A stretch of 64,000 nt of DNA from an uncultured Gemmatimonadaceae bacterium. GTDB taxonomy: Bacteria > Gemmatimonadota > Gemmatimonadetes > Gemmatimonadales > Gemmatimonadaceae. The notes beneath the pieces are model-generated. The model was not told the origin of the DNA. It saw only the letters and a list, made by a program, of their open reading frames with translations, and made no database searches. Position numbers and translations under genes: made by a program. Within the stretch, counting starts at the first letter, position 1. Each line of letters opens with the position of its first letter. Of the stretch, positions 6,701 through 61,607 are shown piece after piece. Where the stretch lies: positions 224,001 through 288,000 of the forward strand of contig CAWBOC010000005.1 of assembly GCA_963790305.1 (NCBI GenBank), written 5' to 3'.

Positions 6701-8305
6701 TCAGTTACTGAGCCGGGGCACGACCCAATTCGCGATCTCCCCCATGACATCCGGCCCGATCTTCCCGCTCGGCAGTCGCACGTATCCCGCGGGATTCCCG
6801 ATCGAATCAGGGAGAAAGAGGTGATTCCGATTGGGGAGAACACGGACGGTCACGTCGCGGTTTCCGGCTTGCCGCAGGGCCGCGCCGATCGCTTCCGCCT
6901 GATCGGCCGTCACCTGCTGATCGGTCGCGCCCTGCAGAACCAGCACCGGCACCTTGACCTTCCGGATCGTCGGCAGTGGCTCGTACGCCAGGAAAAACTT
7001 CATCCACGGCGGCGGCGCGGCGGTCGTGTCGGCGGCAATCCTCGAGGCCGCGAATGCAGAGTCGCGTTTGGCCGGTGCGATCGAGGAATCATGCTCGACG
7101 CCATACCGAATCTGATGGTCGAGAACTTCCCGCCCGCGCTTCGACGGTCCGGCCATGAGGACGATCCCCGCCAGCTTCGGATCTGTCGCGCCCACCATGG
7201 GCGCGATCATCGCTCCCTCGCTGTGGCCGAGCAGGGCGATGCGCGCCGGATTGACGTCAGGCCGCGCGCGGAGCCACGCGATCGCGGCGCGCACGTCGTC
7301 GGCAAAGTCGGCTGACGACGCCTTCGCGAAGTCACCGGTGGACTCGCCGGTGCCACGGTCGTCGAGGCGCAGGACGGCAATGCCGCGCCTGCCTAACGTG
7401 TCGGCGATTTGCCGGAACGGGCGGAAGCCCGGGACGATCGGGATGCTTTCGTCGCGGTCCTGCGGTCCGCTGCCCGAGATCGTGATGACGACGGGAAGAC
7501 GACCGCTCGCGCTCCCAGGAATCGTCAGCGTACCTGCCAGCACGTGTCCGGACGGCGTGGGGATGCGAACGTGCTCGGCGCGATAGGGCGCCCCCGCTGG
7601 GGCGGAGTAGTCCGGCTTCCCGAGCGCGAGCCGGCGAACGGCCTCCCCCTCGACCCGCTCGACGACGAGCCGTTGCGCGGGAACGTGCGCGCGAAGGATG
7701 CGCGTGCCGCGCAGGGCGAGGTGGGTCTGTGAGGGACCGATCGTCACGATCACCGAGTCGGGTGACACGCGACGCGCCGTCGCCGACAGCGTCTGGCCGC
7801 CGGCAGCGAGCAGCACTGGGAAGGTGACGCTGTCGCGGTTCGCGCCGCTCATGCGCTCCAGCGCCACTTCGGTCATGCCGAAGGAGCTGTTGAGCATCAG
7901 GAACGCGTCCGCCTTCGAGGGAAGACGCTGGGTCTGCGTGCTGCCGCCGGCCGTGATCTCGGCGATGCCGGTGTCCGCGACGAGCCGCAGCCTGACCGAC
8001 TGAAGGGCGGACGCGTCCGGCCCGCTGCCCGCCGGGTATGCGACGAGATACAGCTCGCCAATGCGGCCCGCCGCCTCACGAGTCGCGAGGTAAGTGAAGC
8101 GAGGCTGCCCCTGCAGCAGGACCTCGCCGGAAATTCCGCCGGTTGACGAGTTGAATCGCTCGATGCCGATCGTGTCGGTGCCCATGCGAAACACGAACGC
8201 CGCCTCGCCGGCAGTCTGCGCGCTGGCGGCCGACGACACGACCGCCAGTGCGCAAAGAACCTTACGCGCTACGCGTAGTACGTGGTCCGCGCGCTTCTCA
8301 AACAT
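6701..8305 (-). CDS. Exported alpha/beta hydrolase (S9/S15-like)
   Basis: GSGPQDRD, DDRGTGES, GHSEG nucleophile, GATDQQV, NH motifs; signal peptide ending ASAQ. Confidence 0.88.
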   Translation of the reverse strand: MFEKRADHVLRVARKVLCALAVVSSAASAQTAGEAAFVFRMGTDTIGIERFNSSTGGISGEVLLQGQPRFTYLATREAAGRIGELYLVAYPAGSGPDASALQSVRLRLVADTGIAEITAGGSTQTQRLPSKADAFLMLNSSFGMTEVALERMSGANRDSVTFPVLLAAGGQTLSATARRVSPDSVIVTIGPSQTHLALRGTRILRAHVPAQRLVVERVEGEAVRRLALGKPDYSAPAGAPYRAEHVRIPTPSGHVLAGTLTIPGSASGRLPVVITISGSGPQDRDESIPIVPGFRPFRQIADTLGRRGIAVLRLDDRGTGESTGDFAKASSADFADDVRAAIAWLRARPDVNPARIALLGHSEGAMIAPMVGATDPKLAGIVLMAGPSKRGREVLDHQIRYGVEHDSSIAPAKRDSAFAASRIAADTTAAPPPWMKFFLAYEPLPTIRKVKVPVLVLQGATDQQVTADQAEAIGAALRQAGNRDVTVRVLPNRNHLFLPDSIGNPAGYVRLPSGKIGPDVMGEIANWVVPRLSN

Positions 8306-9649: not shown

Positions 9650-12600
9650 TCAGAATCCGAGGTTGAGGGACACGACGAACTGCGTGAGCGCGGGCAAGAG
9701 ACCTTGATCCTGCGGAAAGGACCCCTGCGTCGGTGGGACGCCCGTGTAGCGAACCTCGGGATCTGGTCCGTTGAAGTCGGTCCAGGTTGCGAGGTTGCGT
9801 CCCGCCACGGTCAGCGCCGCGGTCGCAATGCCGGCTCGACTCACCCAATTCTCGGGCAGCCGATACGTCGCGGAGATCTCGCGCAGCTTCACGAACGAGG
9901 CGTCCTCAATGAACTGATCCCCCACGCCAGCGGTCGTCGATGAGGGGGCAATCCCCGCGAGGTACGCCGTCGAGTACCGTTCGGGGAAATGGCGCGCTTC
10001 GCAGACGCCGAAGGCGCAGGCGTTCGCGGCGTTCGCGTTCTGTAAGTTGTGACCCCGCTTGAAGTCCACCATGCCGTACAGCGTTAGGCGCTGGCCGATC
10101 GAGAACGTGTTCGTCACATTCCCCAGGACCTTCGGCGTCTGCGTCCCGACGAAAATGGGAAGGGCTTGCGCGCAGGGGACCGGCGTACCACCGGATGGCC
10201 CGGCCACGCACAAGATGTTGGTGATCGCGTGAGTCGCGGGATCGCGCGTCGCGCTGGCAATGCGCTTCGTCCACCAGCCCGCGATCGGGTAGCCCTCGAC
10301 GTTACGAATGGCCCCAGCACCGGACGGGACGCCGCCCATGTCTTCGATTCGGTCCTTGTTGGTGCTGACGTTCCCGCCGATCTCCCACGCGAAGCGGTCG
10401 AGCGTGATCGCTCTGAAATTCGCCTGAAGCTCGATCCCACTGCCGCTCGTCTCGCCAATGTTGACCGTCTGATCCCCGGCGAACCCACCCAATGGCGCGA
10501 GCTGCCTCGTTAGGATCGCGTCCTTCGTCCGCCTCGTGTAGTAGGTGAAGTCCAGGCTCAGGCGATCGAAGAGGCCCGCCTCGAAACCGGCTTCCCACTC
10601 CGTCCCGCGCTCCGGCTTGAGATCCGGATTCCCGAGCGAGCCCGGAGTCACGCCCGGTATCCCGTTGGCGCGCGGTGCATTGGTCACCGTGCGAAGCGCA
10701 ACAAACGTGTTCGGCTGCTGGCCGGATTGTCCGTATGCGGTGCGGAGCTTCAGGGTATTGACGACATTGCCGAATCCGCTCCAGAACGACTCCTCGCTGA
10801 TCACCCACGCGGCACTGACCTTCGGGTACGTGACCCAGTCGAGGTCTTCGCCGAACGCCGAGTTGTTGTCGACACGCACGCCGGCGGTGAGGAAGAGGCG
10901 GTCGTTCCACCCAAACTGCTGCTGCCCGTAGACACCCATGGTCGTGTTGACGATGAGCTCTTGCGTCGGCGTACCGGCGACTGTCGTCCCCGAGACGGTT
11001 TCAACGCCTGGCGCGGGGAACCGCTGACCCGACAGCGCGCTGTTCTTGAGCTGCTTTCGCACCCACTGTCCGCCAACCGACGTCGCCGACGAGATCGCTG
11101 GGGTAATCGCGAACGTCGCCGTGCCCGAGTAGTCGCCCGTGATGTAGCTGTGGTTGCGCAGCGTCTGCGTGATGCGCCCATCAGCGGCGGCTGCTCCAAC
11201 AAGCGCCGCCACGAATGGCCTGAGCTCAGGCGGGGCGAATCGCTCGAGCGCCCGGCTGTCGTCCGAGGTGTAGTCGAGACCGAGCGTGAGCCGGTGGGCG
11301 AACCAGCTGGCCGGCCGGTGGTTCAGTGTCGTCCCACCGGTGAAGCGGTTGATGTCCTGAGCATTGTCGTAGAGCTGCTGCGGGACTTCCGGCGGCGCGA
11401 AGCCGAACCCGCGATTGGCGGGAAAGACGAGCGGATGGCCAATCGACATTCCCAGCAACGGTGAAACGCCCCCGTCGGTGCCGAGGTGAAGGTTGCTGCG
11501 CACAAAATGCAGGGTGGCCCCAATGTCGATCTTGTCGGTCGCCGCGGTGCGGACGTTCGCGTGGGCGCTGAACGTCTTTCCGAAGTTGTTAGGCTCGATT
11601 CCTTCATCGTCGTTGTACGTGCCCGACAGGTAGTAGGTCAGTTGCTCGCGTCCGCCCGAGAGCGCGAGGTGATAGGATTGCGTGCGGCCGGTCGAGAACA
11701 CCGGCGTCCCGCGATCCTCTTCCTGCTGGATGGGATTCCAGGGAACGATCTCACCCGCGGTGTTGCGAGCGTAGTTGGTGGTGATGCGTCCCTCGGGATC
11801 CCGGAACCATTGCGCGCCCTGCTCGGTGCGCACCGTCAACCGTGCCGGCCCCGCAACGCCTTTCTTGGTGATGATCTGGATCACCCCGTTCGCCGCTTCC
11901 GTCCCGTAGATGGTCGCCGCCGCCGGACCTTTGATGATCTCAATGTCCTGGATGTCCTCCGGCGCGATGTCGTTCAGCCGTGACGCGACCTGCGAGTTTT
12001 GCGCGCCGAGCGCGCCGGCACTCGGCGGCCCTTGATTCACGGCGTTGTTCACCCGAACGCCGTCGATGTATACGATCGGCTCGTTGGAGAGCGATAAACT
12101 CGATCGGCCGCGTATCCATACCGTCGGCCCGGAGCCGACACGCCCCGAGTTGGGCGCGATGATGACGCCCGGAGCGCGCGACTGAAGCAGCGTGCCCAGG
12201 TTCGGCGCCGCTGAACGCTCGAGCTCCTGGGCGGCATCGATCGTTGCCACGGTGTTTCCAAGGCTTCGGCGCCGCTCCCCGATACCCGTGCCCGTCACGA
12301 CGACTTGATCGAGCTCGACGGCCGCCTCGGTGAGAACGATGCGAATGGCGATTTCGCCGACTCGCGCGACTTGCGTCGCCGGCTGAAAGCTCAGTCGGCG
12401 CACCTCGAGCGTGACCTGGTCGCCGGAAAGTCCGGTGATCCGGAAGCGGCCGGCCGCGTCGGTCGCGGCGCCGAAGGTCGTTCCCTGGACGCGGACATTC
12501 GCGCCTTCGACTGGGGTCATCACGCCGGCTTTGACGACCACGCCGGCGACCGTCCCCTGTTGTGCGGCGGCAATGACCGGCGCGAGAACGACGAGTGAGG

Positions 12601-12673: not shown

Positions 12674-12744
12674 TGGCGTGGGACGGGTAGGAGGTCGGCC
12701 AGCGCGCGGCGGGCGGCCGGGCTGGCTCCATCGCTGCGACCAAT

Positions 12745-13756: not shown

Positions 13757-14894
13757 GCGGATCTCGCTGCGCGAGATCCGGCTCCCGCTGCGCGAGCCTT
13801 TCCGGATCTCGAGTGGGGTGGTCGACGAGCGTCGCATCGCGCTCCTCGAGATCGTCGACGCCGACGGGGTCGCCGTATGGAGCGAGTGTGTCGCCGGCGA
13901 GCACCCGAACTACAGCTCCGAGACGATCGATACCGCATGGCACGCGATCACCGAGTGGGTTGCCCCGCGCGTGCTCGGGCGGTCGTTCAGCGATGTGCGT
14001 GACGTCTTCCCGGCACTCGAGCGCGATTTCCGCGGACACCTGATGGCGAAAGCCGCGGTCGAGATGGGAGTTTGGATCCTGGCCGCCGAACGGCTCGGTA
14101 CCTCGCTGGCCAATCTGCTCGGCGGCACCCGATCCCAGATCGCCACCGGCATCTCGCTCGGCATCCAGCCCTCGCCCGAGGTGCTCGTAGAAAAAGCGCG
14201 CGCGGCGTTGGCGTTAGGCTATCGCAAGGTGAAGATCAAGATCCAGCCGGGCGCCGACATCGCCTACGTCGGCGCCGTCCGCGTGGCGCTCGGGCCAACG
14301 GCGCCGCTGATGGCCGACGCGAACAACGCCTACACCATCGCCGACGCCGAGCACCTCGCCCGCCTCGACGCCCTCGAGCTGATGATGATCGAGCAGCCGT
14401 TTGCGTTCGATGATCTCGTGCAGCACGCCGCCCTTCAGCGCCGCCTGACGACGCCGATCTGTCTCGACGAGTCCATCACCTCGGTCGACCGCGCGCGCGA
14501 CATGGCGGCGCTCGGCAGCGGACGCATCGTCAACATCAAGCCGGGACGCGTCGGAGGATTCACAGCGTCACTCGCCATTCACGACTTCTGCGAGACGAAG
14601 GGGATTCCCGTCTGGTGCGGCGGTATGCTCGAGAGCGGTATCGGACGCGCCTGCAACGTGGCGCTGGCGTCGCTCCGCAACTTCACCAAGCCGGGCGACG
14701 TGAGCCCGAGTGCGCGGTACTGGGAGCGGGACATCGTGACGCCGGAATGGACGATGAACGCCGACGGAATGGTTCGCGTCCCGCTCGACCGGCCCGGCCT
14801 GGGCGTGGATGTGGACCTGGGACGCGTGGACGATCTCACCGTCCGAGAAGCGAAGCTCACGGCTCCGAACCGGGCGGCGACCGCTCGAGTTTAG
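13743..14894 (+). CDS. menC: o-succinylbenzoate synthase / N-succinylamino acid racemase (NSAR/OSBS subfamily)
   Basis: Enolase superfamily KIK, DANN, EQP, DES, NIKPGRVGG, WCGGMLESGIGRA motifs. Confidence 0.9.
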   Translation: MLRVERISLREIRLPLREPFRISSGVVDERRIALLEIVDADGVAVWSECVAGEHPNYSSETIDTAWHAITEWVAPRVLGRSFSDVRDVFPALERDFRGHLMAKAAVEMGVWILAAERLGTSLANLLGGTRSQIATGISLGIQPSPEVLVEKARAALALGYRKVKIKIQPGADIAYVGAVRVALGPTAPLMADANNAYTIADAEHLARLDALELMMIEQPFAFDDLVQHAALQRRLTTPICLDESITSVDRARDMAALGSGRIVNIKPGRVGGFTASLAIHDFCETKGIPVWCGGMLESGIGRACNVALASLRNFTKPGDVSPSARYWERDIVTPEWTMNADGMVRVPLDRPGLGVDVDLGRVDDLTVREAKLTAPNRAATARV

Positions 14895-17409: not shown

Positions 17410-18746
17410 TGCGCGTGAGCAGCACCCGTTCAGGGCTCTCGTCGTCGCTCGTGCGCCGGCCGGCTCTCGCGCTAGTCGCGACACTCCTGCTGAGCCCGTC
17501 GCAAGCCAGGTCGCAGCACGAGCATCCCCCAGCAGCGCCGTCCGCCCCTGTCGATCACTCGATGCACGGCATGATCGCTGGTGCGCTCGGCATCTCGCAC
17601 GCACGTATGGGATCGGGCACGACGTGGGTTCCCGACGTCACCCCTATGCGCGCGATCCATACGACGTGGGGCGACTGGTCGGTGATGCTCCATGGTGTCG
17701 CCTTTCTCCAGTACGATCGCCAGTACTCGCGCCGCGGCGACGATCAGGTTGGCCTGATCGACTGGGAGATGTTGATGCTCATGCGGCGACTCGGCCCCGG
17801 GCTTCTGCACTTGCATGCGATGACGAGTCTCGAGCCGTTCACCATCGGCGCCGAAGGCTACCCCTTGCTGCTTCAGACCGGCGAGACGTTCGAGGGGCGT
17901 CCGCTCGTCGACCGCCAGCATCCGCACGATCTCATCATGGAGCTGGCAGGAATGTACGAGCAGCCGGTCTCCGACAATCTCGCCCTCTCGGTGTATGCAG
18001 GCTTTGCCGGCGAGCCTGCGATGGGACCCGTTGCTTTCATGCACCGGCCATCGGCGCAGAGCGATCCGCTCGCGCCACTCGGCCACCATTGGCAGGACGC
18101 TACCCACATTACTTTTGGCGTCGTCACCGGCGGCATCTTCTCGCGACACTGGAAGCTGGAGGGCTCGTGGTTCAATGGCCGCGAGCCGGATGAGAATCGC
18201 TGGAACCTCGATCTCCGGCCACTCGACTCGTGGGCGGGTCGCCTAACGCTGAATCCAACACAGCGCCTGAGTCTGTCGGGATGGTATGGCTTTCTCGAGA
18301 GCCCGGAAGCCAGCGACCCCGATGAGTCGACGCGGCGCTTCGGAGCCTCGCTCCTCTTCGCGCACCCAGGCGTCGGCGGAGGCTGGTCGACGATGCTGCT
18401 CTGGGCCGCCAACGACCACGGTCACGGAGCGGAGCCCAGCTTCGCCGCCGAGAGCGATCTCCAGGTGAGGGGCCACAGTGTCTTCGCGCGCTACGAGTTC
18501 GTGCGCAAGAGCGCCGACGACCTGGTCATCGAGGGCGCGGGAGACGCGGACTTCCCGATTCATTCCTTCGTCGCCGGATACGCCCGCGACCTGGTGAGAA
18601 CGGAATCCGCGGCCATCGGCGCTGGCTTTCGAGCATCCATCAACTGGATTCCGGCATCACTCGCGGAGTCGTACGGAACGCGGAGGCCGGCCGGGATCGC
18701 GGTCTACCTCAGGGTCCGCCCGCCGGATGTGATGCTCGCGCCGTAG
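17409..18746 (+). CDS. Hypothetical exported/outer-membrane protein with His/Met-rich N-terminus
   Basis: Signal peptide; HEH..DHSMHGM, GSGTTW, DRQHPHDLIME, HHWQDATH, FNGREPDE; alternating beta-strand pattern; TGATG coupling. Confidence 0.75.
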   Translation: MRVSSTRSGLSSSLVRRPALALVATLLLSPSQARSQHEHPPAAPSAPVDHSMHGMIAGALGISHARMGSGTTWVPDVTPMRAIHTTWGDWSVMLHGVAFLQYDRQYSRRGDDQVGLIDWEMLMLMRRLGPGLLHLHAMTSLEPFTIGAEGYPLLLQTGETFEGRPLVDRQHPHDLIMELAGMYEQPVSDNLALSVYAGFAGEPAMGPVAFMHRPSAQSDPLAPLGHHWQDATHITFGVVTGGIFSRHWKLEGSWFNGREPDENRWNLDLRPLDSWAGRLTLNPTQRLSLSGWYGFLESPEASDPDESTRRFGASLLFAHPGVGGGWSTMLLWAANDHGHGAEPSFAAESDLQVRGHSVFARYEFVRKSADDLVIEGAGDADFPIHSFVAGYARDLVRTESAAIGAGFRASINWIPASLAESYGTRRPAGIAVYLRVRPPDVMLAP

Positions 18747-19494
18747 CTGCCACCCCACCCTGCCGAAGATAGTCGGCGAAGTCGTCGGGAAGCTCGCTGG
18801 CGATGATCGCCTGTGCCGCCGCCTCGACGTCATAGTCGACTCTCACAATCTCGGCGTTGACGCTGCCCGCCTCGACATCGAGCACGACGTAGCTCGCCCG
18901 CCAGTCGCCATCCTTCGGCCGGCCGACCGAGCCTGTATTGACGTAGTGCACGCCCTCCACGACGCGATGCCACGGCACGTGCGTGTGACCGAAGCACACG
19001 ACATCGCCGGCGCGCGCGCCGAGCCCGGAGCCCATCTTCTCGAGGAACGCGTCGGAGCGATCTTGATGGACGTACACGGTGTTGAGCGTCTGGTTGCCGT
19101 GAACGAGGGTCACGGTCGGCCCGGCGACGTGGCCACCGTTAGGCCGGATGTCGATCCGAAACGGTAGCCCACCCAGAAACGCCTTGGTCCGCGGTGAGAC
19201 GTGCGCGCGCGTCCACGCATAGGAGACGTGCGACAGCTCCTCCTGCCGCGGATCTTCGTACTGGCACCCACAGTGCTTGTAGTCGGCCGCGACCGTGGAG
19301 TCATAGTTTCCCGCCACACCCGAGATGCCGGCCGCGATGAGCGTCTCGACGACCTCGTTTGGCCATGGTGCATATCCGACGAGGTCGCCCAGGTGGTACG
19401 TCGCATCTACGCCCTCGCGCATCGCGACGTCGCGCAGCACCGCCTCCAGCGCCGGCAGGTTGGCGTGAATGTCGGAGATGAGAGCGTAGCGCAT
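18709..19494 (-). CDS. Metallophosphoesterase (calcineurin-like, YfcE/MJ0936 type)
   Basis: SDIHAN, GDLVGY, GNYD, HG, GHTH, NTGSVG motifs. Confidence 0.9.
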   Translation of the reverse strand: MRYALISDIHANLPALEAVLRDVAMREGVDATYHLGDLVGYAPWPNEVVETLIAAGISGVAGNYDSTVAADYKHCGCQYEDPRQEELSHVSYAWTRAHVSPRTKAFLGGLPFRIDIRPNGGHVAGPTVTLVHGNQTLNTVYVHQDRSDAFLEKMGSGLGARAGDVVCFGHTHVPWHRVVEGVHYVNTGSVGRPKDGDWRASYVVLDVEAGSVNAEIVRVDYDVEAAAQAIIASELPDDFADYLRQGGVAATARASHPAGGP

Positions 19495-23192: not shown

Positions 23193-24520
23193 TCACGAGC
23201 GGGACGGCGCCTCCAGACGTGCCGGCTCGAGCCGCGGGACGAGGAGATGAATGACGGCCAGCGCGGTGACGTACGCCAGCCCGCAAACGATGAAGATCGG
23301 CACGTAGTCGTTCCCCGTCGCCTCCAGGACGCGGCCGGTCGCACGCTGAAAGAGCATTCCCCCCATCGCACCGCCGAATCCGCCGAGCCCCACGACCGAC
23401 GCGACGGCGCGCCGTGGAAACATGTCGCTGGCGGTCGTAAAGAGATTGGCCGACCACCATTGGTGCGCGGCAGCCGCCACGCTGACGATCGAGACGGCCA
23501 CCCACAGGCTGCCCGCGTTAGGCGCCAGCATCGTCGGCACGATCAGCAGCGCGGCAATGAGCATCGCGGTTTTGCGCCCGCGGTTCACCGTCCAGCCGCG
23601 CTTGATCAGCGCGCTGGAGAGCCATCCGCCGCCCACGGAGCCGACATCAGCCACGAGGTAGATGACGACCAGCGGCATCGCGATCTGGGCAAGCCGGATG
23701 CCGTACTCCGCGTCCAGGAATTTCGGCAGCCAGTACAGGTAGAACCACCAGATCGGGTCGGTCATGAACTTTCCGATCATGAACGCCCACGTCTGGCGAT
23801 GGCGGAGAAGGCTGCTCCAGCGAACCGCCTCCGTCGATTCCAGTGGATCGCTCCGGATGTAGGCGAGCTCCGCGGTCGTCACCTTCGGATGCACCTCCGG
23901 CGGGCGGTACATCCAGAGCCAGAACGCCAGCCAGACGAACCCGAGGGCACCGGTGACGATGAACGCGAGCGGCCATCCCCAGGTCAGCGCGATCCACGGA
24001 ACGATCAGCGGCGTGAGAATGGCGCCGACGTTGGTGCCAGCATTGAAGATCCCCGTCGCGAGCGCGCGCTCCTTCCGCGGAAACCACTCGGCCACCGCCT
24101 TGATCGCTCCCGGGAAGTTGCCCGACTCGCCGAGGCCTAACGCGGCGCGCGCGACGGAGAAGCCGGTGGCCGTTCGCGCGAAGGCGTGCCCAATCGCCGC
24201 CAGCGCTCCACGCGACGATCGAGAACGCGAACCCGAGGCGAACGCCGAAGCGGTCGAGGAGGCGCCCCATGCCGAGGAAGCCGAATGCGTAGGCGAGGCT
24301 GAACCACGAGACGATGTCGCCATACTGTGTCTCGGTCCATCCGAGCTCGCGCGAGAGGGTCGGCGCGAGGATGCCGAGCACCTGGCGGTCGATGTAGTTG
24401 ATCGTCGTCGCCGCGAACAGCAGCGCGCAGATCGTCCATCGATATCCGAGCCATCGCCCCGGAGCGGGGGCGCGCCGCCTCGGCTGCGCTCGGCATCGCT
24501 GGTGCTCCCGCGACCGTCAT
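23193..24520 (-). CDS. exuT: Hexuronate MFS transporter (two apparent frameshifts near 24470 and 24204)
   Basis: [63 protein letters not shown] spread over three frames; ATGA overlap with kdgK. Confidence 0.85.
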
Positions 24521-46578: not shown

Positions 46579-47877
46579 GTGACCACCCTGGGCGTGGCGC
46601 TGGTCACCGTCGCGAGCACTCCAGCGTCAGTGAGCGCGCAACTCACGGTGGCGGACTCGGTTAGCTCACACGCCGTGGCGCCAGGCTTGACGCTGCGACG
46701 TATCGTGCGACCGGCAGGGCCATGGGTCCTTTCCGTACTCGAGGTGGATCTCCGACGGCCGGAGATCGAGGTCAAAGGCGTTCGCGCCTGCGATAATCTT
46801 CTGGGACGCGAGCGGCCTTCCGCGATCGCGCGTCGGATGCGGCAGGATGGTGTAGACGTCGTTGGCGTTCTCAACGCCGACTTCTTCGACCTGCGCGGAG
46901 GCACCGGGGCCACCGAGAGCAACGTCGTGATCAATGGCGAGATCGTAAAAGCGGTCACGGTGACGGAATCTCCGTTCGACGCCTTTGACAACGTCCACAC
47001 ACAGTTCGGCATCACCGCCACCGGGGCGCCGGTCCTCGATCGCTTTCACCTGACGGGCGTGGTACGAACACCGAGTGGTGAATGGCCGCTTGCGGCGATC
47101 AATGCGCGTGCGCCCGGTGCGCTCGCGCTTCTCACCAGGTGGTTCGACACGCTCGCGCTTTCCGTGCAGCCCGCCGACACGATCGCGCACGTCTCATTGC
47201 TCAAGGTCGGCGGACGAGGGGACACGGCGCGCTATCGCGTCGATTCCAAGCCAAAGCGTGAACGGCCGGTCGCGTCGGCCGATGAGGCGGCAATGCTGGT
47301 CGCGAGTGGGAACGCACTGCCGGTCGTGGAGCGACTGCTCCCCGGCGACCGCGTCGAGATCGTGACGAAGCTCATCCCGGATCGCGGGCCGCTGCGGACC
47401 GTCGTCGGCGGCTGGCCACGCATCGTCGACGCGGGGCGCAACGTCGCCCTCGCCGCCGACTCCGTCGAAGGCACCATTCCACGCTTCTCCCGCGCCCGGC
47501 ACCCTCGCTCGGCGTTAGGCATCTCCCGGGACAGCGCGACATTATATCTGGTCGCCGTGGACGGCCGTCAGGAGACGAGCGTGGGCATGACGCTCGAGGA
47601 GCTGGCCGACGCGATGATCTCCCTCGGCGCCCATGAAGCGATGAATCTGGACGGCGGCGGCTCCACCGCGCTGGTCATTCGTGATTCGATCGTGAACAAA
47701 CCGTCCGACGCCACTGGGGAGCGCGCCGTCGGAAATGTCGTCGCGATCACGCGCCGCACCGCCAAGCAGGGAAACCCGGAGCGCCGGATGCTGCCGCGAA
47801 AAAGCGGAAGCGTCGCCTCCTGCGTTCTCCCACTTCCGCGCGACACCGCCGCCGCGGCCGTTCCGCGGCCGCGATAG
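46579..47877 (+). CDS. Phosphodiester glycosidase (NAGPA/DUF2233) family protein
   Basis: LNADFF, RHPRSALG, VDGRQ, AMNLDGGGST, NKPSD..ERAV; start uncertain. Confidence 0.88.
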   Translation: MTTLGVALVTVASTPASVSAQLTVADSVSSHAVAPGLTLRRIVRPAGPWVLSVLEVDLRRPEIEVKGVRACDNLLGRERPSAIARRMRQDGVDVVGVLNADFFDLRGGTGATESNVVINGEIVKAVTVTESPFDAFDNVHTQFGITATGAPVLDRFHLTGVVRTPSGEWPLAAINARAPGALALLTRWFDTLALSVQPADTIAHVSLLKVGGRGDTARYRVDSKPKRERPVASADEAAMLVASGNALPVVERLLPGDRVEIVTKLIPDRGPLRTVVGGWPRIVDAGRNVALAADSVEGTIPRFSRARHPRSALGISRDSATLYLVAVDGRQETSVGMTLEELADAMISLGAHEAMNLDGGGSTALVIRDSIVNKPSDATGERAVGNVVAITRRTAKQGNPERRMLPRKSGSVASCVLPLPRDTAAAAVPRPR

Positions 47878-54356: not shown

Positions 54357-55180
54357 CGAGGTTTCCCCTCGCGCCGGCGGCGCCACGCTCCGGGTGACAT
54401 CCCGTGGCGCCGCTGGAATTCGCGAGTCAGGTGGCTCTGGTCGCTGAAGCCTCCGGCGATGCCGATCTCGGACAGGCTCATCGTGCTTTGAGTGAGCTGC
54501 TCCGCGACCCAGTCCAAGCGCAGGCGCCGCGCATACTCGCCCACCGTCGTTCCGAAGTGCGCCCGGAACTCCCGCGCCAAATGCGACGGCGTCACTCCCA
54601 CGGTGGCAGCTACGCCGGACAGCGACACTCCTTCGCGGAAGTGTGCGTGGAGCAGCTCCTGCGCGAGCAGGAGCCACGGCGGAACACGTTCATGGAATCG
54701 ACCTGCGCGATGCTGCCGAGCTGCCGCCGCCAGCATGGTGTGCACGAGACCATCGACCACGAGGGGCGACAGGTCATCGGCCGCGTTGATCTCCTGGGCG
54801 ATGCGGTTGGCATCGGCGGCAATCCCGGCGTGACGCAGATGCCGCACCGCATCCAGAAACCCGCCGAACGCGACGAATGCGGCCGGGTCCGGCTGCACGA
54901 CGAGGACGCGAGCCCCATCGCGCCCAATTCGGTTGGCGTGGCGCTCGCCTAACGGTTCCACCCAGACGGCCGCCGGCGGGCAGTCGAGCGTTCGATGCGC
55001 AATCGCGGAGTCGAACGCCCCGCTCAACATCACCCCGAAGATGGGACGGTCGTGCGTGTGGGACGGCAGCTCGGCGTTCGGAGGAAACCACGCCTCGATG
55101 ACGCCGCACCCCGTCGCCTCCATGCTGTGGAAGCGCGGACTGCCCATCGTGACCGGTACGTGCCGTTGCCGCTGTCTCAC
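54353..55180 (-). CDS. AraC family transcriptional regulator
   Basis: Cupin HTH.R..., C-terminal SLSEIG..GFSDQSHLTREF...GMSPG; start uncertain (55180 or 55147). Confidence 0.9.
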   Translation of the reverse strand: MRQRQRHVPVTMGSPRFHSMEATGCGVIEAWFPPNAELPSHTHDRPIFGVMLSGAFDSAIAHRTLDCPPAAVWVEPLGERHANRIGRDGARVLVVQPDPAAFVAFGGFLDAVRHLRHAGIAADANRIAQEINAADDLSPLVVDGLVHTMLAAAARQHRAGRFHERVPPWLLLAQELLHAHFREGVSLSGVAATVGVTPSHLAREFRAHFGTTVGEYARRLRLDWVAEQLTQSTMSLSEIGIAGGFSDQSHLTREFQRRHGMSPGAWRRRREGKPR

Positions 55181-56571: not shown

Positions 56572-58824
56572 TTATTGAAGCTGCAGCTGCATTTCGTACA
56601 ACCGCCGATAGATCCCGTTAGGCCGAGCCAGCAGCTCCCGGTGCGTTCCCGACTCGGCCAGCCGGCCCTCCTCGATCACGAACAATCGCGACGCGCGGCG
56701 CAGGGTCGACAGCCGGTGCGCGATCGCGAAGACCGTGCGACCGGCGATGAGCCGCTCGAGCGCCTCCTGAATCTCCCGCTCCGTTTCCGTATCGACGCTG
56801 CTCGTCGCCTCGTCGAGGATCAGGATCCGCGGGTCGTGCAGAATCGCCCGCGCAATCGAAATGCGCTGACGCTCCCCGCCCGAGAGCGTGTGTCCACGCT
56901 CACCCACCACCGTGTCGTAGCCCTGCCCCAGCTTGCAGATGAAGTCGTGCGCGTTGGCCGCCTTCGCCGCCGCCACGACCGCGCTCAGCGACGCCGTCTG
57001 CATCCCATAGCGGATGTTCTCCAGCACCGTGCCGTGAAACAGATACGGATCCTGAAGCACCATCCCGAGCTGCTGGCGATAGTGCCCCGTATCGAGCTGG
57101 CGAATGTCCACGCCGTCGACGCGAACCGTTCCGCCGGTGGCGTCGTAGAAGCGCGCCACCAGATTCACCACCGTCGACTTGCCACCACCCGACGGACCCA
57201 CCAGCCCGATCAACTCTCCTGCGCGTACGTCGAAGCTGATCCCGCGCAGGATCTGCCGCACTCCGTCATACGCGAACGTCACGTTCTCGAACGTCACGCG
57301 CCCGCGCACCGGCACCAGACGCACCGGCTCCGCCACGTCACGCACTTCCGGCTCGCTGTCCAGCACCTCGAACACGCGGTGCGCCGATGACGTCGCCCGA
57401 TTGATCGTGCGCGCCATCTGACCGATGATCTCGATCGGACCGACGAACATCGTCGTGTACAGCAGAAACGACACGAACACCCCCGCCGACAATGGCGAGC
57501 CTTCGCCGAGCAATCGAGGCATCGCGAAGATCCACACCATGACCGTCGTCGAGTGCACCGCGAGCATCAGCAACGGCCAGAACGTCGTCCACATCTTGTG
57601 GATCTCGTTCGCCTCATCGGTGCAGTCCTCGTTGCGCACGCTGAAACGCTCGATCTCGCGCGACTCCTGGTTGAACGCCTTTACGACGCGAATGCCCGGA
57701 ATCGTGTCCGACAGCACGTCGGTGACGCGCGACCATTTCCGCCAGGCGCGAATGAATCGCGAGTTGAGCGATTCACCGTGCCGGTAGATCATCCAGCAGA
57801 ACAGCGGCACCGGAAGCGTCATCACCAGCCCCAGCCGCCAGTCGAGCGAGAGCAGGACGACGCCCAGCCCGAGCAGCATCACCAGCGACAGTGACACATC
57901 CACCACTCCGAACGCCACGAAGTCCCAGAGCCGGTCGGTGTCCGATGTCACGCGCGTGATCAGGCTTCCCGTCTTCTTCCGCGAGAAGAAGGACAGGCTC
58001 AGGTGCTGAATGTGCTCGTACAGCTCGGCACGCAGGTCGCGCGCGACCCACTCACCGATCACCGACATCAAGCGCAGCCGCACGTGCGCCGCGATCTGCC
58101 GCAGCACGTAGAGCCCCGCCATCGCGCCGACGGCGATCCACGCGATCGTCGCCGCCGCGCCACGCGCCATCGTGCCTTCGTTCGCCTTGCGCACGACGTC
58201 GTCGATCAGATAGCCCGCCAGATACGGCGGCACGAGGCTCGCCAGCGTCACGATCGCCGCGGCCGTGAGGCCGAGCGTGAGCTCGCGGCGATAGCGCGTG
58301 AGATACCGCAGCAAGCGCAGGATGACCGCTGACTGACGGCCGGCCACCAGCGCCTGCGCGTCACGCACCGGGCGCGCGACCGCGTCCGCGTACACGCGGT
58401 CCGCATCGGTCGGTTCCACCGCGCGACCTTCCAGCGCCTCGTCCAGCACGAAGCGAATGTTCTCGAACGCGCCGCGCTGCCGCTGGGTGTACCGCACGAC
58501 CGCCAAAGGCGGATCGTCAGGCACACCGAGCAGGAGCAACGCGTTCGCGCTGAGCCCGGGCGATTCCTGCACCGCCTGTATGCGCGCGCGCTCGACCGAG
58601 TGCACGTTCCACGCGCCCTCTCCGGCCGGACGCGCCAGAGCGATGTGCCGGGGGCCTAACGCAAGCCACGACTCGTGCAGTCGCAGCCCGTGGTCGAGGT
58701 CGGCAAGGGCGTAGAGCTGAACCGGCTGATTTCCCCACTCGCGCTCGATGCGCGCGCGAAGCTCGGTCGGGAGGCGAGCTGGCTGGCCGATGTATCGGCT
58801 GATGATCTCTTGATCCTGATTCAT
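56572..58824 (-). CDS. ABC exporter, fused permease/ATP-binding subunit with extended N-terminus
   Basis: TM domain; GPSGGGKS, LSGGERQR, ILDEATS, AHRL. Confidence 0.95.
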   Translation of the reverse strand: MNQDQEIISRYIGQPARLPTELRARIEREWGNQPVQLYALADLDHGLRLHESWLALGPRHIALARPAGEGAWNVHSVERARIQAVQESPGLSANALLLLGVPDDPPLAVVRYTQRQRGAFENIRFVLDEALEGRAVEPTDADRVYADAVARPVRDAQALVAGRQSAVILRLLRYLTRYRRELTLGLTAAAIVTLASLVPPYLAGYLIDDVVRKANEGTMARGAAATIAWIAVGAMAGLYVLRQIAAHVRLRLMSVIGEWVARDLRAELYEHIQHLSLSFFSRKKTGSLITRVTSDTDRLWDFVAFGVVDVSLSLVMLLGLGVVLLSLDWRLGLVMTLPVPLFCWMIYRHGESLNSRFIRAWRKWSRVTDVLSDTIPGIRVVKAFNQESREIERFSVRNEDCTDEANEIHKMWTTFWPLLMLAVHSTTVMVWIFAMPRLLGEGSPLSAGVFVSFLLYTTMFVGPIEIIGQMARTINRATSSAHRVFEVLDSEPEVRDVAEPVRLVPVRGRVTFENVTFAYDGVRQILRGISFDVRAGELIGLVGPSGGGKSTVVNLVARFYDATGGTVRVDGVDIRQLDTGHYRQQLGMVLQDPYLFHGTVLENIRYGMQTASLSAVVAAAKAANAHDFICKLGQGYDTVVGERGHTLSGGERQRISIARAILHDPRILILDEATSSVDTETEREIQEALERLIAGRTVFAIAHRLSTLRRASRLFVIEEGRLAESGTHRELLARPNGIYRRLYEMQLQLQ

Positions 58825-59207: not shown

Positions 59208-61607
59208 TTACGGCCAAGGCAGCGGGATAACCCTGAACCGGGACCGTGCCTCCGGATTATCCTCTCCGGCGAAAAAGCGGTTGATGTCACGGACCGCCGC
59301 GGCCCGATGAGCCCGGTCGGCAGGCGAGCCGGTACTCATCGTCGAAAGCCGGTTCTTCAGGAGATCGAGGTGCATCGCCGACACCGACCGCACCTCGGCC
59401 AACGCCTGCCGGTCGCCGGCACGATCGAGCAGCGTGTTGAGCACCACCTGTTGCACCGCGCGTCGGAGCGCCTGGTGACCACCGTTGCTCGACGGAGTCG
59501 CACCCCACGTGCGGGTCACGATCGTTCGAATCACTTCGTCGAGGGACGGATTCGCCGCATCTCTCGCGTTGAACAACACGAGTCGTGCAGCCCGCTCGCG
59601 CTCGAGGATCCCTTCGACCACTTCCGTTGCCAGCCCACCGGCAAGGGAGACCTGGTCGAACGACGTCCCGCCGGCCGAGCCGATCCACTCGATCGACGCG
59701 TCGCCGCCCGCGGGCACCGGTGGAATGAGCGCCATCACACGCGCGGGTACAGCAAGCTTCGCCGGCTCGAGCTCATCCAGCGCCATCGCGAGTGCGCGCC
59801 GCTGCTGCGCGGGAGGCGTTACGCTCGTCGGCGTCTGACTGTCACCGCGTACCGCGTAGGTGAAGTCCATGCCGCCGATGTATTTGACCAGCCCCTCCAG
59901 CGAATACCGATGATGCAAATAGACGTGCGCGAATCGCATGTTGAGCAGGTACATTGGCTCGCCCGGCTTGATGGCGCGCTCGTCGAACTTCTCGATGAGA
60001 ACGCGGCGAACCGCTGCGGTCCGCTCGACCGCGTCGAACGCACTGGCGCCCTCCACCCACCGCGTTGCCTCGGGGATCGATCCCTCGGCGCCGGCATGCT
60101 GGTCGGCAACGAACCGCAATCCACGCCCGAGTCCCTCCGTCACGATGCGCTGGAGTCCGGCTTTCTCAGCATCCGCGTTCGGATACCACGTGTAGCCGTA
60201 ACGGATGGCGAGCGAATCCCATCCGCCGGCGAAAGGTGCGTAGGCGCGAGAGAGATCGGGCTGACCGTTGGCGCCCAGCGTGATGATCGGCACCGGATAG
60301 TCCATCACGGACGCGCGCCCCTGCGATGACGAAATGAAGTTGTGCGAGAGGCCCAGGGTGTGGCCGATCTCGTGAGCGACATGCTGTCGCCGGCGGGCCA
60401 TCGCGAACTCTTCCGCCGGCATGTTCAGCCCGTTAGGTCCAGCCGCGGGGAGAAGCCCAGCGTAGATGTTGTAATCGATCAACGATCGCCACGAATCCAT
60501 GCGGACGACCGTCCGCACGATCTCGCCGGTTCGCGGGTCGGCGAACGATGGACCGACGGAGGGTCCGGGCCCGCTGCGGTGCACCCAGTAAATGAGGTTG
60601 TACCGCGCATCCATTGGGTCGGCGCCAGCCGGCAGGTCGCGAACCTGAAAGGCGTTTCGCCAACCCGCCGCCTGGAGCACGGTGTTCCACCAGTTGCCGC
60701 CGTCGCGAAAGGCCGTGCGATACGGTTCGGGGATGGCGGGATCGAGGTAGTAGATGATGGGCGCCACCGGCTCGGTGGGTTCCCCACGTGCGTACGCAGC
60801 GGGATCCTTGGGAACGAGCCGCCACCGGTTGATGAATCCCGCGCGGTAGGTGCCCTCGAAGCTCTGCCCGAAGTCGTTGAATTGCGTGGCGAAGAATCCC
60901 GATCGTGGATCGGCCGCGCGCGGCGTGAATCCCTGAGGCGCGGGGAGCTCCACCAGCGAGTGATGGATCTCCATTGTCGCCGACGATGGATCGGGAACGT
61001 GCCGGCGCACGGCGGGTCCGGGGTTCTCGATTGCGAAGGTGAGCACCGCGTGGATTTCCGTATTCGTCGGGAACGCCTTCGTGCGCGAGGCGTCGATCCA
61101 GCTACGACTCGCGTCGACGCGCGCGCTCCCCTGCTGCGCGCGTCGCAGGCTCTCTGCGATTCCGTACGTGTCGGTGAGAAAGAGCCCCGTGGCGTCGACG
61201 AGCAGGGTGCCGTTGGTCTCCGACTCGATTGGAAACGAAGCGATCACCGACGTTGGATACGCCTCAGCTGCCGCGCGCTGGCCCGCGGCATCGGCGCCCT
61301 GCGCACGAACGCTCCAGTTGTCGCGCACGAGAAGAACGCGTTTCCCCTGCCGCTCGAGGCGCACGAGAGCACTGCCGCCGGTTTGGCCGCGGTCCAGCCC
61401 CAGCGCGTTCGCTCCGAATCCGGTCGCGAGGACGCTCTGGTGCAGCATGTCTCGATTCAGCCGGGTAGGCGCGATCTCGAGCAGAACCTTGTTTCGATCG
61501 GCATCGACGCGCACTCCGATGAATTGCGCGAGGCCAACGGTTGGAGCACCGAGTGAGATCGTCAGAGCGGCGACTGCTCTGAGCAAGAAGCGATCGTTCC
61601 TTCGCAT
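59208..61607 (-). CDS. Zinc-dependent metalloprotease (DUF5117/DUF4953 type, metzincin)
   Basis: Signal peptide; HEIGHTLGLSHN, SVMDY Met-turn, DPRTGEI. Confidence 0.92.
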   Translation of the reverse strand: MRRNDRFLLRAVAALTISLGAPTVGLAQFIGVRVDADRNKVLLEIAPTRLNRDMLHQSVLATGFGANALGLDRGQTGGSALVRLERQGKRVLLVRDNWSVRAQGADAAGQRAAAEAYPTSVIASFPIESETNGTLLVDATGLFLTDTYGIAESLRRAQQGSARVDASRSWIDASRTKAFPTNTEIHAVLTFAIENPGPAVRRHVPDPSSATMEIHHSLVELPAPQGFTPRAADPRSGFFATQFNDFGQSFEGTYRAGFINRWRLVPKDPAAYARGEPTEPVAPIIYYLDPAIPEPYRTAFRDGGNWWNTVLQAAGWRNAFQVRDLPAGADPMDARYNLIYWVHRSGPGPSVGPSFADPRTGEIVRTVVRMDSWRSLIDYNIYAGLLPAAGPNGLNMPAEEFAMARRRQHVAHEIGHTLGLSHNFISSSQGRASVMDYPVPIITLGANGQPDLSRAYAPFAGGWDSLAIRYGYTWYPNADAEKAGLQRIVTEGLGRGLRFVADQHAGAEGSIPEATRWVEGASAFDAVERTAAVRRVLIEKFDERAIKPGEPMYLLNMRFAHVYLHHRYSLEGLVKYIGGMDFTYAVRGDSQTPTSVTPPAQQRRALAMALDELEPAKLAVPARVMALIPPVPAGGDASIEWIGSAGGTSFDQVSLAGGLATEVVEGILERERAARLVLFNARDAANPSLDEVIRTIVTRTWGATPSSNGGHQALRRAVQQVVLNTLLDRAGDRQALAEVRSVSAMHLDLLKNRLSTMSTGSPADRAHRAAAVRDINRFFAGEDNPEARSRFRVIPLPWP

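Follow-up and report, generated by a model that had tools for sequence, protein, structure and literature searches.

The octamer GCCTAACG (CGTTAGGC on the opposite strand) constitutes in the genome of an uncultured Gemmatimonadaceae soil bacterium a frame-independent, strand-symmetric signal at the level of the DNA. The evidence supports this view and speaks against an artefact of coding or of repeat elements. By analogy with DUS, USS, and HIP1, the word is preferentially read as a self-recognition signal for DNA uptake or recombination, with a probability of about 0.38. No report describing GCCTAACG as a signal in Gemmatimonadota, and no paper pairing the octamer with this phylum or with uptake sequences, was found in the literature searched, in agreement with the preliminary description, where the signal was called possibly undescribed.

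The window, i.e., the whole stretch of DNA analysed (64 kb), contains 20 copies of the octamer, 10 per strand (Table 1). In 100 dinucleotide-preserving shuffles, the mean was 0.96 (sd 0.91, maximum 4), and none of the 100 reached 20. All 20 coordinates and strands given in the preliminary description were exact, and its estimate of about 13 further CCTAAC/GTTAGG cores corresponds to exactly 13, as 33 cores occur in the window and 20 of them lie in full octamers. The excess extends beyond the window: 855 copies (436/419 by strand) were counted in the genome, about 1 per 5 kb, and each of the 13 contigs has 0.13-0.30 per kb. Among octamers of the whole genome, GCCTAACG ranks first in Markov models of orders 1, 2, and 3, with expectations of 67.9, 39.9, and 44.3 copies, respectively. 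Orders 4 and 5 predict 327 and 750 copies because the conditioning 5- to 7-mers are largely made up of motif copies. The enrichment also persists in called coding DNA, where 668 octamers are observed vs 44.2 ± 6.4 expected after synonymous shuffling and 29.2 ± 4.2 after shuffling of codon order. Neither of the two refuting outcomes listed in the preliminary description was therefore obtained. The low-order Markov and codon-shuffled nulls thus span 29-68 copies. The excess over chance is about 20-fold in the focal genome and 12-61x overall, depending on null and genome. Many copies, far above the expectation from composition (here 855 vs 40-68), are a trait of uptake sequences.

Table 1. Copies of the octamer in the 64-kb window; reading frames and gene context follow our own crude gene calls.
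Feature	Position	Strand	Gene context	Reading frame
GCCTAACG	7391..7398	+	antisense to hydrolase gene	sense strand ACG TTA GGC (T-L-G)
octamer	10082..10089	-	TonB-dependent receptor gene	CGC CTA ACG (R-L-T)
octamer	14212..14219	-		sense strand GCG TTA GGC (A-L-G)
octamer	18241..18248	+		CGC CTA ACG (R-L-T)
octamer	19137..19144	-		G CCT AAC G (P-N)
octamer	23516..23523	-	MFS transporter gene	G CCT AAC G (P-N)
octamer	24135..24142	+	MFS transporter gene also holding 23516..23523	sense strand GCG TTA GGC (A-L-G)
octamer	25837..25844	-		GGC CTA ACG (G-L-T)
octamer	29057..29064	+	glucuronate isomerase gene	sense strand GCG TTA GGC (A-L-G)
octamer	30960..30967	-		C GTT AGG C (V-R); rarest frame
octamer	33825..33832	+	outside gene calls (intergenic or boundary)	
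octamer	34639..34646	+		G CCT AAC G (P-N)
octamer	34967..34974	-	gene boundary	
octamer	39155..39162	-		sense strand GCG TTA GGC (A-L-G)
octamer	42977..42984	+	NamZ-like gene	GGC CTA ACG (G-L-T)
octamer	44196..44203	+	outer-membrane barrel gene	sense strand ACG TTA GGC (T-L-G)
octamer	47513..47520	-	outside gene calls	
octamer	54947..54954	+		sense strand CCG TTA GGC (P-L-G)
octamer	56616..56623	-	ABC transporter gene	G CCT AAC G (P-N)
octamer	58654..58661	+	ABC transporter gene also holding 56616..56623	sense strand GCG TTA GGC (A-L-G)

About 78% of the copies lie within called genes, where the octamer is placed in all four stop-free reading frames. The three frames recognised earlier are real, and the fourth, C GTT AGG C, is also in use. 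The codons TTA and CTA were previously said to be forced by the word: 323 of the 1109 TTA codons of the genome lie inside it, as do 8 of 19 TTA and 4 of 33 CTA codons of the window (crude gene calls). Around the sites of the focal genome no flank conservation was found, the flanks having background composition; the sites are single, and neither inverted nor core-type pairing was found there. A dispersed repeat of the REP/MITE type was rejected on account of these flanks and of the share of copies in called genes. Specificity is graded, with a strict core C-[C/A]-TAAC and edge positions which accept A, and the variants ACCTAACG, GCCTAACA, and GCATAACG are enriched 9.6x, 9.3x, and 6.9x, respectively. 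To judge from these sequences, the pattern resembles that of a protein binding site. In genome G303, the preferred edge bases are slightly different.

The two strands are used equally and without replication-linked orientation bias, as in uptake sequences. In 50-kb bins of the focal genome, 363 octamers lie on the G-rich strand vs 411 on the C-rich strand (p=0.09); GC skew follows gene-strand bias (rho 0.62), and at a GC-skew switch on contig C5 the strand ratio of the octamer is unchanged. The lack of strand polarisation noted in the window is therefore borne out, and an orientation of the Chi or KOPS type, co-polar with replication, was rejected on the strand split by GC skew and the C5 switch. 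Octamers are spread near-evenly over all contigs (mean 9.9 per 50 kb, variance 12.8), and close pairs are depleted, with 1 pair vs 17 expected below 100 bp and 11 vs 50 below 300 bp. Pairs below 100 bp are also few in the relatives G016 (4 vs 14.4 expected) and G303 (11 vs 21.4 expected). The longest motif-free stretch of the focal genome measures 54 kb (C6:288265-342699) and consists of housekeeping DNA, with no island; the second-longest includes a polysaccharide gene cluster. Octamer density is flat over codon-usage quintiles. This flat density and the housekeeping desert do not reveal the scarcity in recently acquired DNA which is seen with uptake sequences.

The sites are conserved by position. 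In five congeners, 46 of the 56 focal sites are kept at aligned positions vs 16.8 expected, and 0 of 1,000,000 site-retention simulations reached 46. The DNA-level signal deduced from the window alone is thus upheld, as it withstands codon shuffling, has unconserved flanks and no replichore polarity, and is conserved in orthologues. Selection for a function inside the cell would predict such positional conservation equally well.

The octamer is enriched in 9 of 9 genomes of the focal genus and, within one Gemmatimonadota order, 15 or more genera carry it at 300-6360 copies; outside this order, enrichment was found in 0 of 135 genomes. Octamer-rich genera are interleaved with background-level relatives, and scattered genera span 110 to 6360 copies. 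G016, with 6360 copies in total, has 123 in 99 kb (45x), and G303 has 298 in 400 kb (61x; strands 138/160), which gives densities of 0.75-1.25 per kb. In the genus g44, three genomes hold 3479-4141 copies and the fourth, G292, holds 66. The lineage sister to the focal genus is represented by G015, an unpublished genome with 9 copies, and G010, of the same family, contains 1 copy in 400 kb vs 0.9-7.1 expected. As with uptake sequences, the word is common to related species and its sites are kept in the core genome, with a patchy distribution at the family level. The trait is dispensable and quantitative, which fits an easily lost process like competence.

According to the preferred reading, the octamer would be a short, asymmetric signal of "self" in double-stranded DNA, whose single sites are read by a putative protein. 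It would bias the DNA taken up or recombined in natural transformation, as do the DUS of Neisseriaceae and the USS of Pasteurellaceae. Fragments carrying the word would be favoured, and recombination would carry new copies into the wider population (molecular drive) and renew those that have decayed. Such favoured fragments and drive would place the word on both strands and in any tolerated frame, against codon preference. Close pairs would be rare because a second copy near an existing one adds little, and a lapse of the process in some lineages, with loss of sites by ordinary mutation, would result in the patchy distribution. We infer that the reader of the octamer is part of the machinery for uptake or recombination, and that the sites are maintained by drive, not by organism-level selection. 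Among the functions proposed in the preliminary description, uptake may be considered plausible, whereas a repair drive by C5-methylase and Vsr, Chi, and KOPS are unsupported.

The focal genome encodes ComEC, DprA, PilQ with an AMIN domain, and a minor-pilin operon including GspH/FimU-like pilins; ComEA, ComM, and PilT are also among the uptake genes present, and in relatives ComEA adjoins PilB/PilT-type ATPase genes. Low-count relatives equally carry every competence gene tested (ComEC 41/41, PilQ-like 40/41; ComEA, PilT, and ComM 5/5 each), so that no link between this machinery and the word is evident. Of the genes proposed earlier for a check of co-occurrence, a methyltransferase and ComEA are found, and both also occur in low-count relatives. 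One pilin-like candidate was compared across genomes, and its presence does not follow octamer abundance. At the start of focal contig C11, a PilB-type ATPase gene beside PilT contains 2 TGA codons and a shift of frame that interrupt it; all 5 congeners searched have an intact copy. Literature searches on Gemmatimonadota yielded no account of natural transformation.

Like the DUS, the octamer is a short asymmetric word that occurs hundreds to thousands of times, on either strand and irrespective of replichore, within and outside genes, and is common to related species. Its edge positions differ by lineage, which recalls the DUS "dialects". It differs from the DUS in sequence, phylum, and length (8 bp vs 10-12), in the absence of the inverted pairs at terminators seen for many DUS, in its patchiness among genera where DUS is family-wide, and in its higher share within called genes (about 78%, vs 35% given for N. 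gonorrhoeae in PMC1939737). The DUS receptor in Neisseria is ComP, whereas no ComP-like reader was found among the uptake genes searched. The USS is likewise mostly intragenic, more evenly spaced than chance, and free of orientation bias, with a strict core and weaker edges, and the same source describes even spacing and absent orientation bias for both USS and DUS (PMC1939737). Unlike the USS, the octamer has no AT-rich or extended flanking consensus and occurs in a high-GC genome, where it forces rare codons. HIP1 (GCGATCGC) of cyanobacteria is also a hyper-abundant octamer (reported at 15-300x vs 12-61x here), conserved within and between genes, at background in some lineages, and non-randomly spaced; its function is debated, with transformation now proposed (PMC5861425, PMC13756078). 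Reportedly, HIP1 increases the efficiency of transformation, and it has been put forward as an uptake signal (PMC13756078; bioRxiv 2024.09.10.611283). Conversely, HIP1 is palindromic, whereas GCCTAACG differs from its reverse complement and belongs to a different phylum; no cognate methylase tracks its abundance, the Type IIG-like methylase being present in high- and low-count genomes, and the T4SS genes, a reported correlate of HIP1, were not found (VirB4 in 1/41 genomes).

The conservation of orthologous positions, the near-even spread on all contigs with avoidance of close pairs, and the graded, protein-site-like specificity would also agree with the binding site of an intracellular chromosome-level factor (nucleoid organisation, repair, cohesion) kept by organism-level selection, an explanation that appears rather unlikely. 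For HIP1, which Xu et al. read in this way, conservation and periodic spacing have been taken to imply chromosome or nucleoid functions (PMC5861425). However, a core chromosomal function should neither vary about 60-fold within one genus, as between G292 and the other genomes of g44, nor be absent from the lineage of G015, sister to the focal genus. In addition, a candidate protein was not found, and the 54-kb housekeeping region is without any site.

It is less likely still that the octamer is the target of the conserved Type IIG/MmeI-like methyltransferase of the clade, a methylated self mark which may condition uptake or recombination, as reported for HIP1. The gene, which sits beside an SNF2 helicase, encodes the sole DNA methyltransferase found in the focal genome and is vertically inherited, being present in 39 of 41 relatives. 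At E<=1e-60, it was found in 91/94 genomes of group f1, 148/166 of f2, 4/5 of f3, 4/7 of f4, and 2/2 of f5, and in 0/126 of f6-f12, so that octamer enrichment occurs only inside the clade having that gene. MmeI-family sites are 6-8 bp long, asymmetric, and AC-ending, and GCCTAAC has such a form. Nevertheless, the low-count G010, G015, and G292 have the gene, G010 being without any enriched word, whereas the high-count G004, G007, G022, and G362 gave weak or no match. No alignment column splits 10 high-count from 13 low-count orthologues by a shared residue. As a rule, the target sites of restriction-modification systems are avoided or neutral, rather than enriched 20-60x, and m6A does not give a deamination-driven repair bias. 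A word bias from VSP repair (Dcm/Vsr) was rejected separately, as searches of the focal genome (94% complete) gave no match to PF00145 or PF03852.

A Chi-like site for a putative DNA-end-processing machine in AddAB-less lineages is quite doubtful. The octamer is, like Chi, an asymmetric 8-mer, and in the focal genus its density, roughly 1 per 5 kb, resembles that of Chi in E. coli. Among 18 genomes holding 300 copies or more, the PDDEXK_1 nuclease domain of AddAB-type enzymes was found in 1, compared with 60 of the remaining 248 genomes of the order and 129 of 135 from other orders; in g44, an adjacent AddA/AddB-like pair occurs in the low-count G292 and in none of the three high-count genomes. 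Within the order, however, the association is weak (Fisher p=0.08, kinship ignored), 188 low-count genomes are also without the domain, and G036 (345 copies) and G038 (177) show partial AddAB-like matches. Unlike Chi, the octamer has no strand polarity, whether judged against the GC skew of the focal genome or in the 400 kb of G303, and no replacement helicase-nuclease was identified. To our knowledge, no Chi reaches 45-61x enrichment. A Chi read by RecBCD or AddAB themselves was rejected: RecC (PF04257) occurs in 1/41 genomes, PF12705 in 0/9 genomes of the genus, where the AddAB-type nuclease domain was thus not found, and neither RecC nor AddAB was found in the focal genome.

The consensus of the attC R''/R' core is RYYYAAC / GTTRRRY, and GCCTAAC/GTTAGGC is a literal instance of this core in integrons of the same order. 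In low-count relatives, the octamer recurs at intervals of 500-650 bp on one strand, as part of a longer conserved element, GCCTAACGG..TCGCGC.TAAGCTGCGGC, a pattern typical of integron cassette arrays; on G027:C95, 23 of 24 copies in 20 kb are on one strand. IntI scores above its family cut-off in 28 of 41 genomes, the focal one included. Even so, an origin of the word as a side effect of integron or other tyrosine-recombinase activity is nearly refuted, as the focal sites have no conserved flanks, partner box, or hairpin context and lie in frame within conserved genes. IntI does not follow octamer abundance: G016, despite its 6360 copies, has just three partial IntI matches, adjacent to one another and all short of the cut-off, and IntI is absent in G012 and G022 and intact in many low-count genomes. 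The complete attC site (R''-L''...L'-R' inverted repeat, one-strand cassettes) was rejected for the focal genome, whose copies are without the rest of attC, a one-strand array, or cassette spacing; it occurs only in the arrays of relatives. Finally, a neutral compositional or mutational artefact without a reader is refuted for practical purposes, since the order-5 model that takes up most of the excess does so circularly, its sub-words being themselves motif copies, while low-order and codon-shuffled nulls give just 29-68, G010 of the same family stays at its expected level, site conservation is far above background, and neither a C5 methylase nor Vsr was found to drive a repair bias.

A more specific form of the uptake reading is tentative and somewhat less probable than its general form. 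The octamer may be an undescribed Gemmatimonadales uptake or self-recognition sequence whose reader is ancestral to the order and which doubles as the integron attC core, with cassettes born tagged. If true, this would be the first uptake sequence outside Proteobacteria, bar the current proposal for cyanobacterial HIP1. Any often-transforming lineage of the order would accumulate the same word, because the reader would be ancestral. Likewise, gene cassettes would be born with a tag favouring their own uptake, since the word would be the attC recombination core.

The octamer GCCTAACG, counted on both strands, occurs 20 times in the window, 10 times per strand by pattern search, whereas dinucleotide-preserving shuffles of the window contain 0.96 +/- 0.91 copies (maximum 4, 100 shuffles). 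The positions assigned to these 20 copies in the preliminary description were exact, and its 13 further cores without the full octamer were also found, giving 33 CCTAAC/GTTAGG cores in total. The window spans G000:C5:224001-288000, and the assembly that holds it (focal genome G000; 4.31 Mb, 13 contigs, 66% GC) contains 855 octamers, 436 forward and 419 reverse. An enrichment peculiar to the window was tested for and is not the case, as the excess spans every contig, with a density of 0.13-0.30 per kb on all 13. Markov models of orders 1, 2 and 3 predict 67.9, 39.9 and 44.3 copies, and at each of these orders the octamer is the most over-represented 8-mer of the genome. The expectation climbs to 327 and 750 at orders 4 and 5 because the conditioning sub-words are themselves largely copies of the motif.

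Genes were called by a crude in-house procedure based on ORFs and codon usage (3341 genes, 82% coding), so that coding and intergenic counts are approximate. The called coding DNA of the focal genome carries 668 octamers, as compared to 44.2 +/- 6.4 when synonymous codons are shuffled within genes and 29.2 +/- 4.2 when codon order is shuffled (30 shuffles each); the counts thus do not fall to the codon-shuffled expectation. Two of the six reading frames contain a stop (GCC-TAA and CGT-TAG), and the remaining four are all in use: 321 sites are read as xCG-TTA-GGC on the sense strand, 139 as GC-CTA-ACG, 139 as G-CCT-AAC-G, and 64 as C-GTT-AGG-C, with 192 sites intergenic or at gene boundaries. 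The frame analysis and the two codon shuffles rule out a coding artefact. Indeed, 323 of the 1109 TTA codons in the genome lie inside CG-TTA-GGC, and the word is therefore maintained against codon preference. In about 21 genes, as crudely called, translation seems to end at the TAA of GCC-TAA-CG.

A repeat element is ruled out by the flank profile, since the 15 bases on each side of the octamers have background composition, and a known RNA family is rejected as no Rfam family matches within the window. The other over-represented words of the genome differ in kind from the octamer. AATGCGGA is present in 628 copies, 60% of them intergenic, with the flanking consensus CnGAATGCGGAAnnCGG; GCCTCTAG/AGAGGCGCTA are tandem 9-mers, and arrays of (GCGCCTCTA)n are seen; TGACTCCT is part of heptamer tandems, and (CCTGACT)n arrays occur. 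The window also contains an intergenic element of about 150 bp, in which inverted tandem-heptamer arms, (AGGAGTC)n ... (GACTCCT)n, enclose a pair of GC-rich hairpins. Copies at 80-90% identity, dozens in number, are scattered over all five same-genus genomes searched, and the element looks MITE- or REP-like. The window likewise encodes two outer-membrane receptors of very large size that contain CarboxypepD_reg domains, near genes for glucuronate isomerase, a mannitol dehydrogenase-like protein, NamZ, and peptidases, which makes this a polysaccharide or peptide scavenging neighbourhood.

Single-base variants reveal a strict core with soft edges. ACCTAACG, CCCTAACG, GCATAACG, and GCCTAACA are enriched 9.6x, 5.9x, 6.9x, and 9.3x in the focal genome, and variants at positions 2, 4, 6, and 7 are at or below expectation. 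The octamers occur as single sites; genome-wide, TAAC...GTTA pairing is limited to 13 loose pairs plus a single outward pair, and no dif-like site was found, which disposes of paired or core-type recombination sites. Adjacent octamers avoid each other at short range, with 1 pair less than 100 bp apart (17 expected), 11 less than 300 bp apart (50 expected), and 34 less than 500 bp apart (81.5 expected). Beyond 500 bp the spacing is Poisson-like, and the relative orientations of neighbours are uniform.

Strand polarity was analyzed in 78 bins of 50 kb over the focal genome. Gene-strand bias goes along with GC skew (rho 0.62) and motif strand does not (rho -0.16, p=0.17); the G-rich strand carries 363 octamers and the C-rich strand 411 (p=0.09), and the strand ratio is unchanged across the GC-skew switch of contig C5, to which the window belongs. 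Codon-usage quintiles hardly differ in octamer density (0.17-0.21 per kb), which is reduced in short genes and roughly uniform along gene length. The largest octamer-free stretch measures 54 kb (Poisson p about 0.013) and encodes rpL21/L27, RNase E/G, RecQ, sigma-70, AspRS, trp, pur, and LexA. A reading of motif deserts as foreign islands is not supported by the two largest, the first being housekeeping DNA and the second mixed.

Syntenic contigs from five same-genus genomes were aligned to contig C5. Aligned pairs below 400 bp were dropped first, then those below 600 bp or 76% identity, and gapped windows were set aside. The focal octamers were kept at 22/23 sites in G008, 10/10 in G004, 10/14 in G005, 3/4 in G001, and 1/5 in G003, where the fractions of identical 8-mer windows are 34%, 31%, 27%, 26%, and 21%, respectively. 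Pooled over the five congeners, 46 of 56 octamers are kept against 16.8 expected, a number reached in 0 of 1,000,000 simulations; 10 more octamers are present in the relative alone. Where a partner lacks the motif, the difference is mostly T>G at position 4 or A>G at position 5, which gives the commoner words GCCGAACG and GCCTGACG.

In a survey of 41 relatives, all nine genomes of the focal genus carry 382-1006 octamers. The other high-count relatives are G016, with 6360 copies in 5.1 Mb, and five genomes with 605, 561, 516, 460, and 345; three more hold intermediate numbers (173-194) and the remainder 3-65, the reversed control word being found 21-223 times per strand. A phylum sample of 401 genomes contains at least 300 octamers in 18 of the 266 genomes of the focal order (families f1-f3), among them genera g44 and g47 (3479-4469 copies) and five f2 genomes of genus g75; in the other families (f4-f12), 0 of 135 genomes exceed 70. 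Relatives and phylum sample combined, at least 15 genera reach 300 octamers. The trait can differ within a genus, since three g44 genomes hold 3479-4141 octamers and a fourth (G292) 66. Sequence samples from two high-count genomes confirm the same word: G016 has 123 octamers in 99 kb (45x) and G303 has 298 in 400 kb (61x), the latter with tighter positions 1 and 3 and T or C favoured before the octamer. A stretch of 400 kb of G010, a low-count genome of the same family, contains 1 octamer where 0.9-7.1 are expected, and the search for another enriched word yielded just coding-type words at 3-6x; a dialect word in low-count relatives is thus unsupported.

Among the enzymes that might read or maintain the word, a 1021-aa Type IIG/MmeI-like protein followed by a 739-aa SNF2 helicase deserves attention. 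The enzyme carries Eco57I, N6_Mtase, and MmeI domains, has REase_MTase_IIG as its best PADLOC match, and is the sole DNA methylase found in the focal genome. Of the 41 relatives, 39 possess an orthologue, its identity dropping with kinship, and matches at E<=1e-60 occur in 91/94 genomes of f1, 148/166 of f2, 4/5 of f3, 4/7 of f4, 2/2 of f5, and 0/126 of f6-f12; enrichment therefore occurs solely within the clade owning the pair. Vertical inheritance of the pair across the order is unusual for a restriction-modification-like gene. Among the 41 relatives, however, methylase presence does not separate high-count from low-count genomes, and a residue signature for motif level was ruled out column by column, as no alignment column splits the two. 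A tree of this vertically inherited gene was built from 26 of the 39 matching genomes and retains two rows with very long branches, probably wrong ORFs. On it the high state needs 5 changes, at least 4 of them forced by well-supported branches, and the unpublished genome G015, sister to the focal genus, is low-count. Motif positions inside the methylase gene coincide among members of the focal genus and, in another comparison, between two f3 genera, and do not coincide among distant f1 lineages, which fits repeated accumulation or turnover rather than one frozen inheritance. A VSP-type repair drive (C5 methylase plus Vsr) was rejected, because searches of the focal genome (94% complete) for PF00145, PF03852, and the PF01555 methylases gave no hit.

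AddAB-type PDDEXK_1 domains are near-universal outside the order (129/135 genomes), present in 61/266 genomes inside it, and found in 1/18 genomes with at least 300 octamers. An AddA/AddB-like pair lies side by side in the low-count g44 genome and is missing from the three g44 genomes with high counts; G036 and G038 show partial AddAB-like matches. Within the order, these domains and octamer level are weakly associated (Fisher p=0.08, without correction for phylogeny). The lack of strand polarity, together with RecC in 1/41 genomes and a PDDEXK_1 domain in 0/9 genomes of the focal genus, argues against Chi or KOPS.

The transformation gene set is present. ComEC occurs in 41/41 genomes, the focal genome encodes DprA, ComM, and a PilQ with AMIN domain, and its ComEA, truncated by the end of contig C11, adjoins PilB/PilT-type ATPases as in relatives. 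The PilB-type gene is interrupted by 2 in-frame TGA codons and a frame change, and is intact in 5/5 congeners. ComEC, DprA, PilQ, ComEA, PilT, and ComM are equally present in low-count genomes and fail as trait markers; a 301-aa pilin-like protein has close orthologues in 5/8 congeners without tracking the trait. A 5.7-kb end of C11 is 98.75% identical, in reverse complement, to an end of C3, probably an unresolved join or strain variant, and PilQ is therefore counted twice. A T4SS link, as reported for HIP1, is dismissed with VirB4 in just 1/41 genomes.

In low-count relatives, octamers form one-strand arrays, one every 500-650 bp, within a longer conserved element, GCCTAACGG..TCGCGC.TAAGCTGCGGC; on G027:C95, 23 of 24 octamers in 20 kb share a strand. 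These resemble the cassette arrays of chromosomal integrons, and the attC R''/R' core consensus has GCCTAAC/GTTAGGC as one of its instances. Uneven strand counts point to such arrays in G152, G329, G074, and G378 too. In the focal genome the octamers carry none of the attC context and do not qualify as attC sites. IntI exceeds the family cut-off in 28/41 genomes, including the focal one (intact, 449 bits versus 265), and G016 has three adjoining partial matches, all below cut-off; motif level shows no correlation with IntI, which is rejected as reader. The roughly 16 kb after the focal IntI contain small ORFs at a low coding density; this stretch is possibly a cassette region and holds one exact octamer.

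Coordinates of features in the focal genome and of octamer arrays in relatives
Feature	Location	Remark
Large outer-membrane receptor	window 9650-13837	
Large outer-membrane receptor	window 43674-47021	
Inverted-heptamer element	window 37988-38141	
Minor-pilin operon	G000:C3:165.5-169 kb	two GspH/FimU-like pilins
Second pilin set	G000:C6	
301-aa pilin-like protein	G000:C6:62109-63011	
Largest octamer-free stretch	G000:C6:288265-342699	
Methylase-helicase pair (L145)	G000:C7:233022-238370	
IntI	G000:C9:694912-695922	
Possible cassette region	after IntI, within G000:C9:694912-712000	
ComEA - PilB-type - PilT cluster	G000:C11:1-3300	PilB-type gene at contig start
Duplicate contig ends	G000:C11:40880-46571 and C3:183114-188806	
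Octamer arrays L001/L002	G027:C95:1-24 kb	
Octamer array L003	G025:C3	
Octamer array L004	G027:C80	

The octamer behaves as an asymmetric monomer with graded specificity, neutral to strand and reading frame. Its copies are conserved in position and avoid one another at short range, and the trait varies in quantity and is dispensable. These properties are those of a putative binding site in double-stranded DNA, upheld by a process acting on DNA and not on proteins. The known systems sharing this combination of traits are DUS, USS, and HIP1. USS/DUS are described as evenly spaced, without orientation bias, and largely intragenic (PMC1939737), and HIP1 as conserved and non-randomly spaced (PMC5861425), with an uptake role now proposed (PMC13756078), reportedly also in bioRxiv 2024.09.10.611283. 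The likeness to these systems leads us to favour tentatively, at a probability of about 0.38, the view that the octamer would be a self-signal for uptake or recombination that molecular drive keeps in place. The strongest argument for this view over a core chromosomal function is the ready loss of the trait, seen even among members of one genus; its weakest point is the link of the octamer to the uptake machinery, whose genes are equally present in low-count genomes. Outside subscription journals and supplements, none of the 25 top-ranked of 6,873 papers paired the octamer with Gemmatimonadota or uptake sequences, and no paper was found for "Gemmatimonad" with "uptake sequence"; of 478 matches for the octamer in either orientation, the 20 listed have it in primers or constructs.

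To our knowledge, DUS, USS, and HIP1 are the only well-studied hyper-abundant frame-independent genomic words, and the octamer is a clean fourth, in a poorly studied, mostly uncultured soil phylum. It offers natural contrasts, with densities between background and 1.25 per kb in close relatives, at least 4-5 state changes on the gene tree and, within one genus, three genomes with about 4000 octamers and a fourth with 66. Phylogenetic profiling across these contrasts could reveal the reader, test drive versus selection, and show whether AddAB loss or the methylase-helicase pair is a precondition. The octamer can serve to mark the lineage in binning and to recognize foreign DNA and, if it is indeed an uptake tag, its addition to constructs could render these bacteria genetically tractable.
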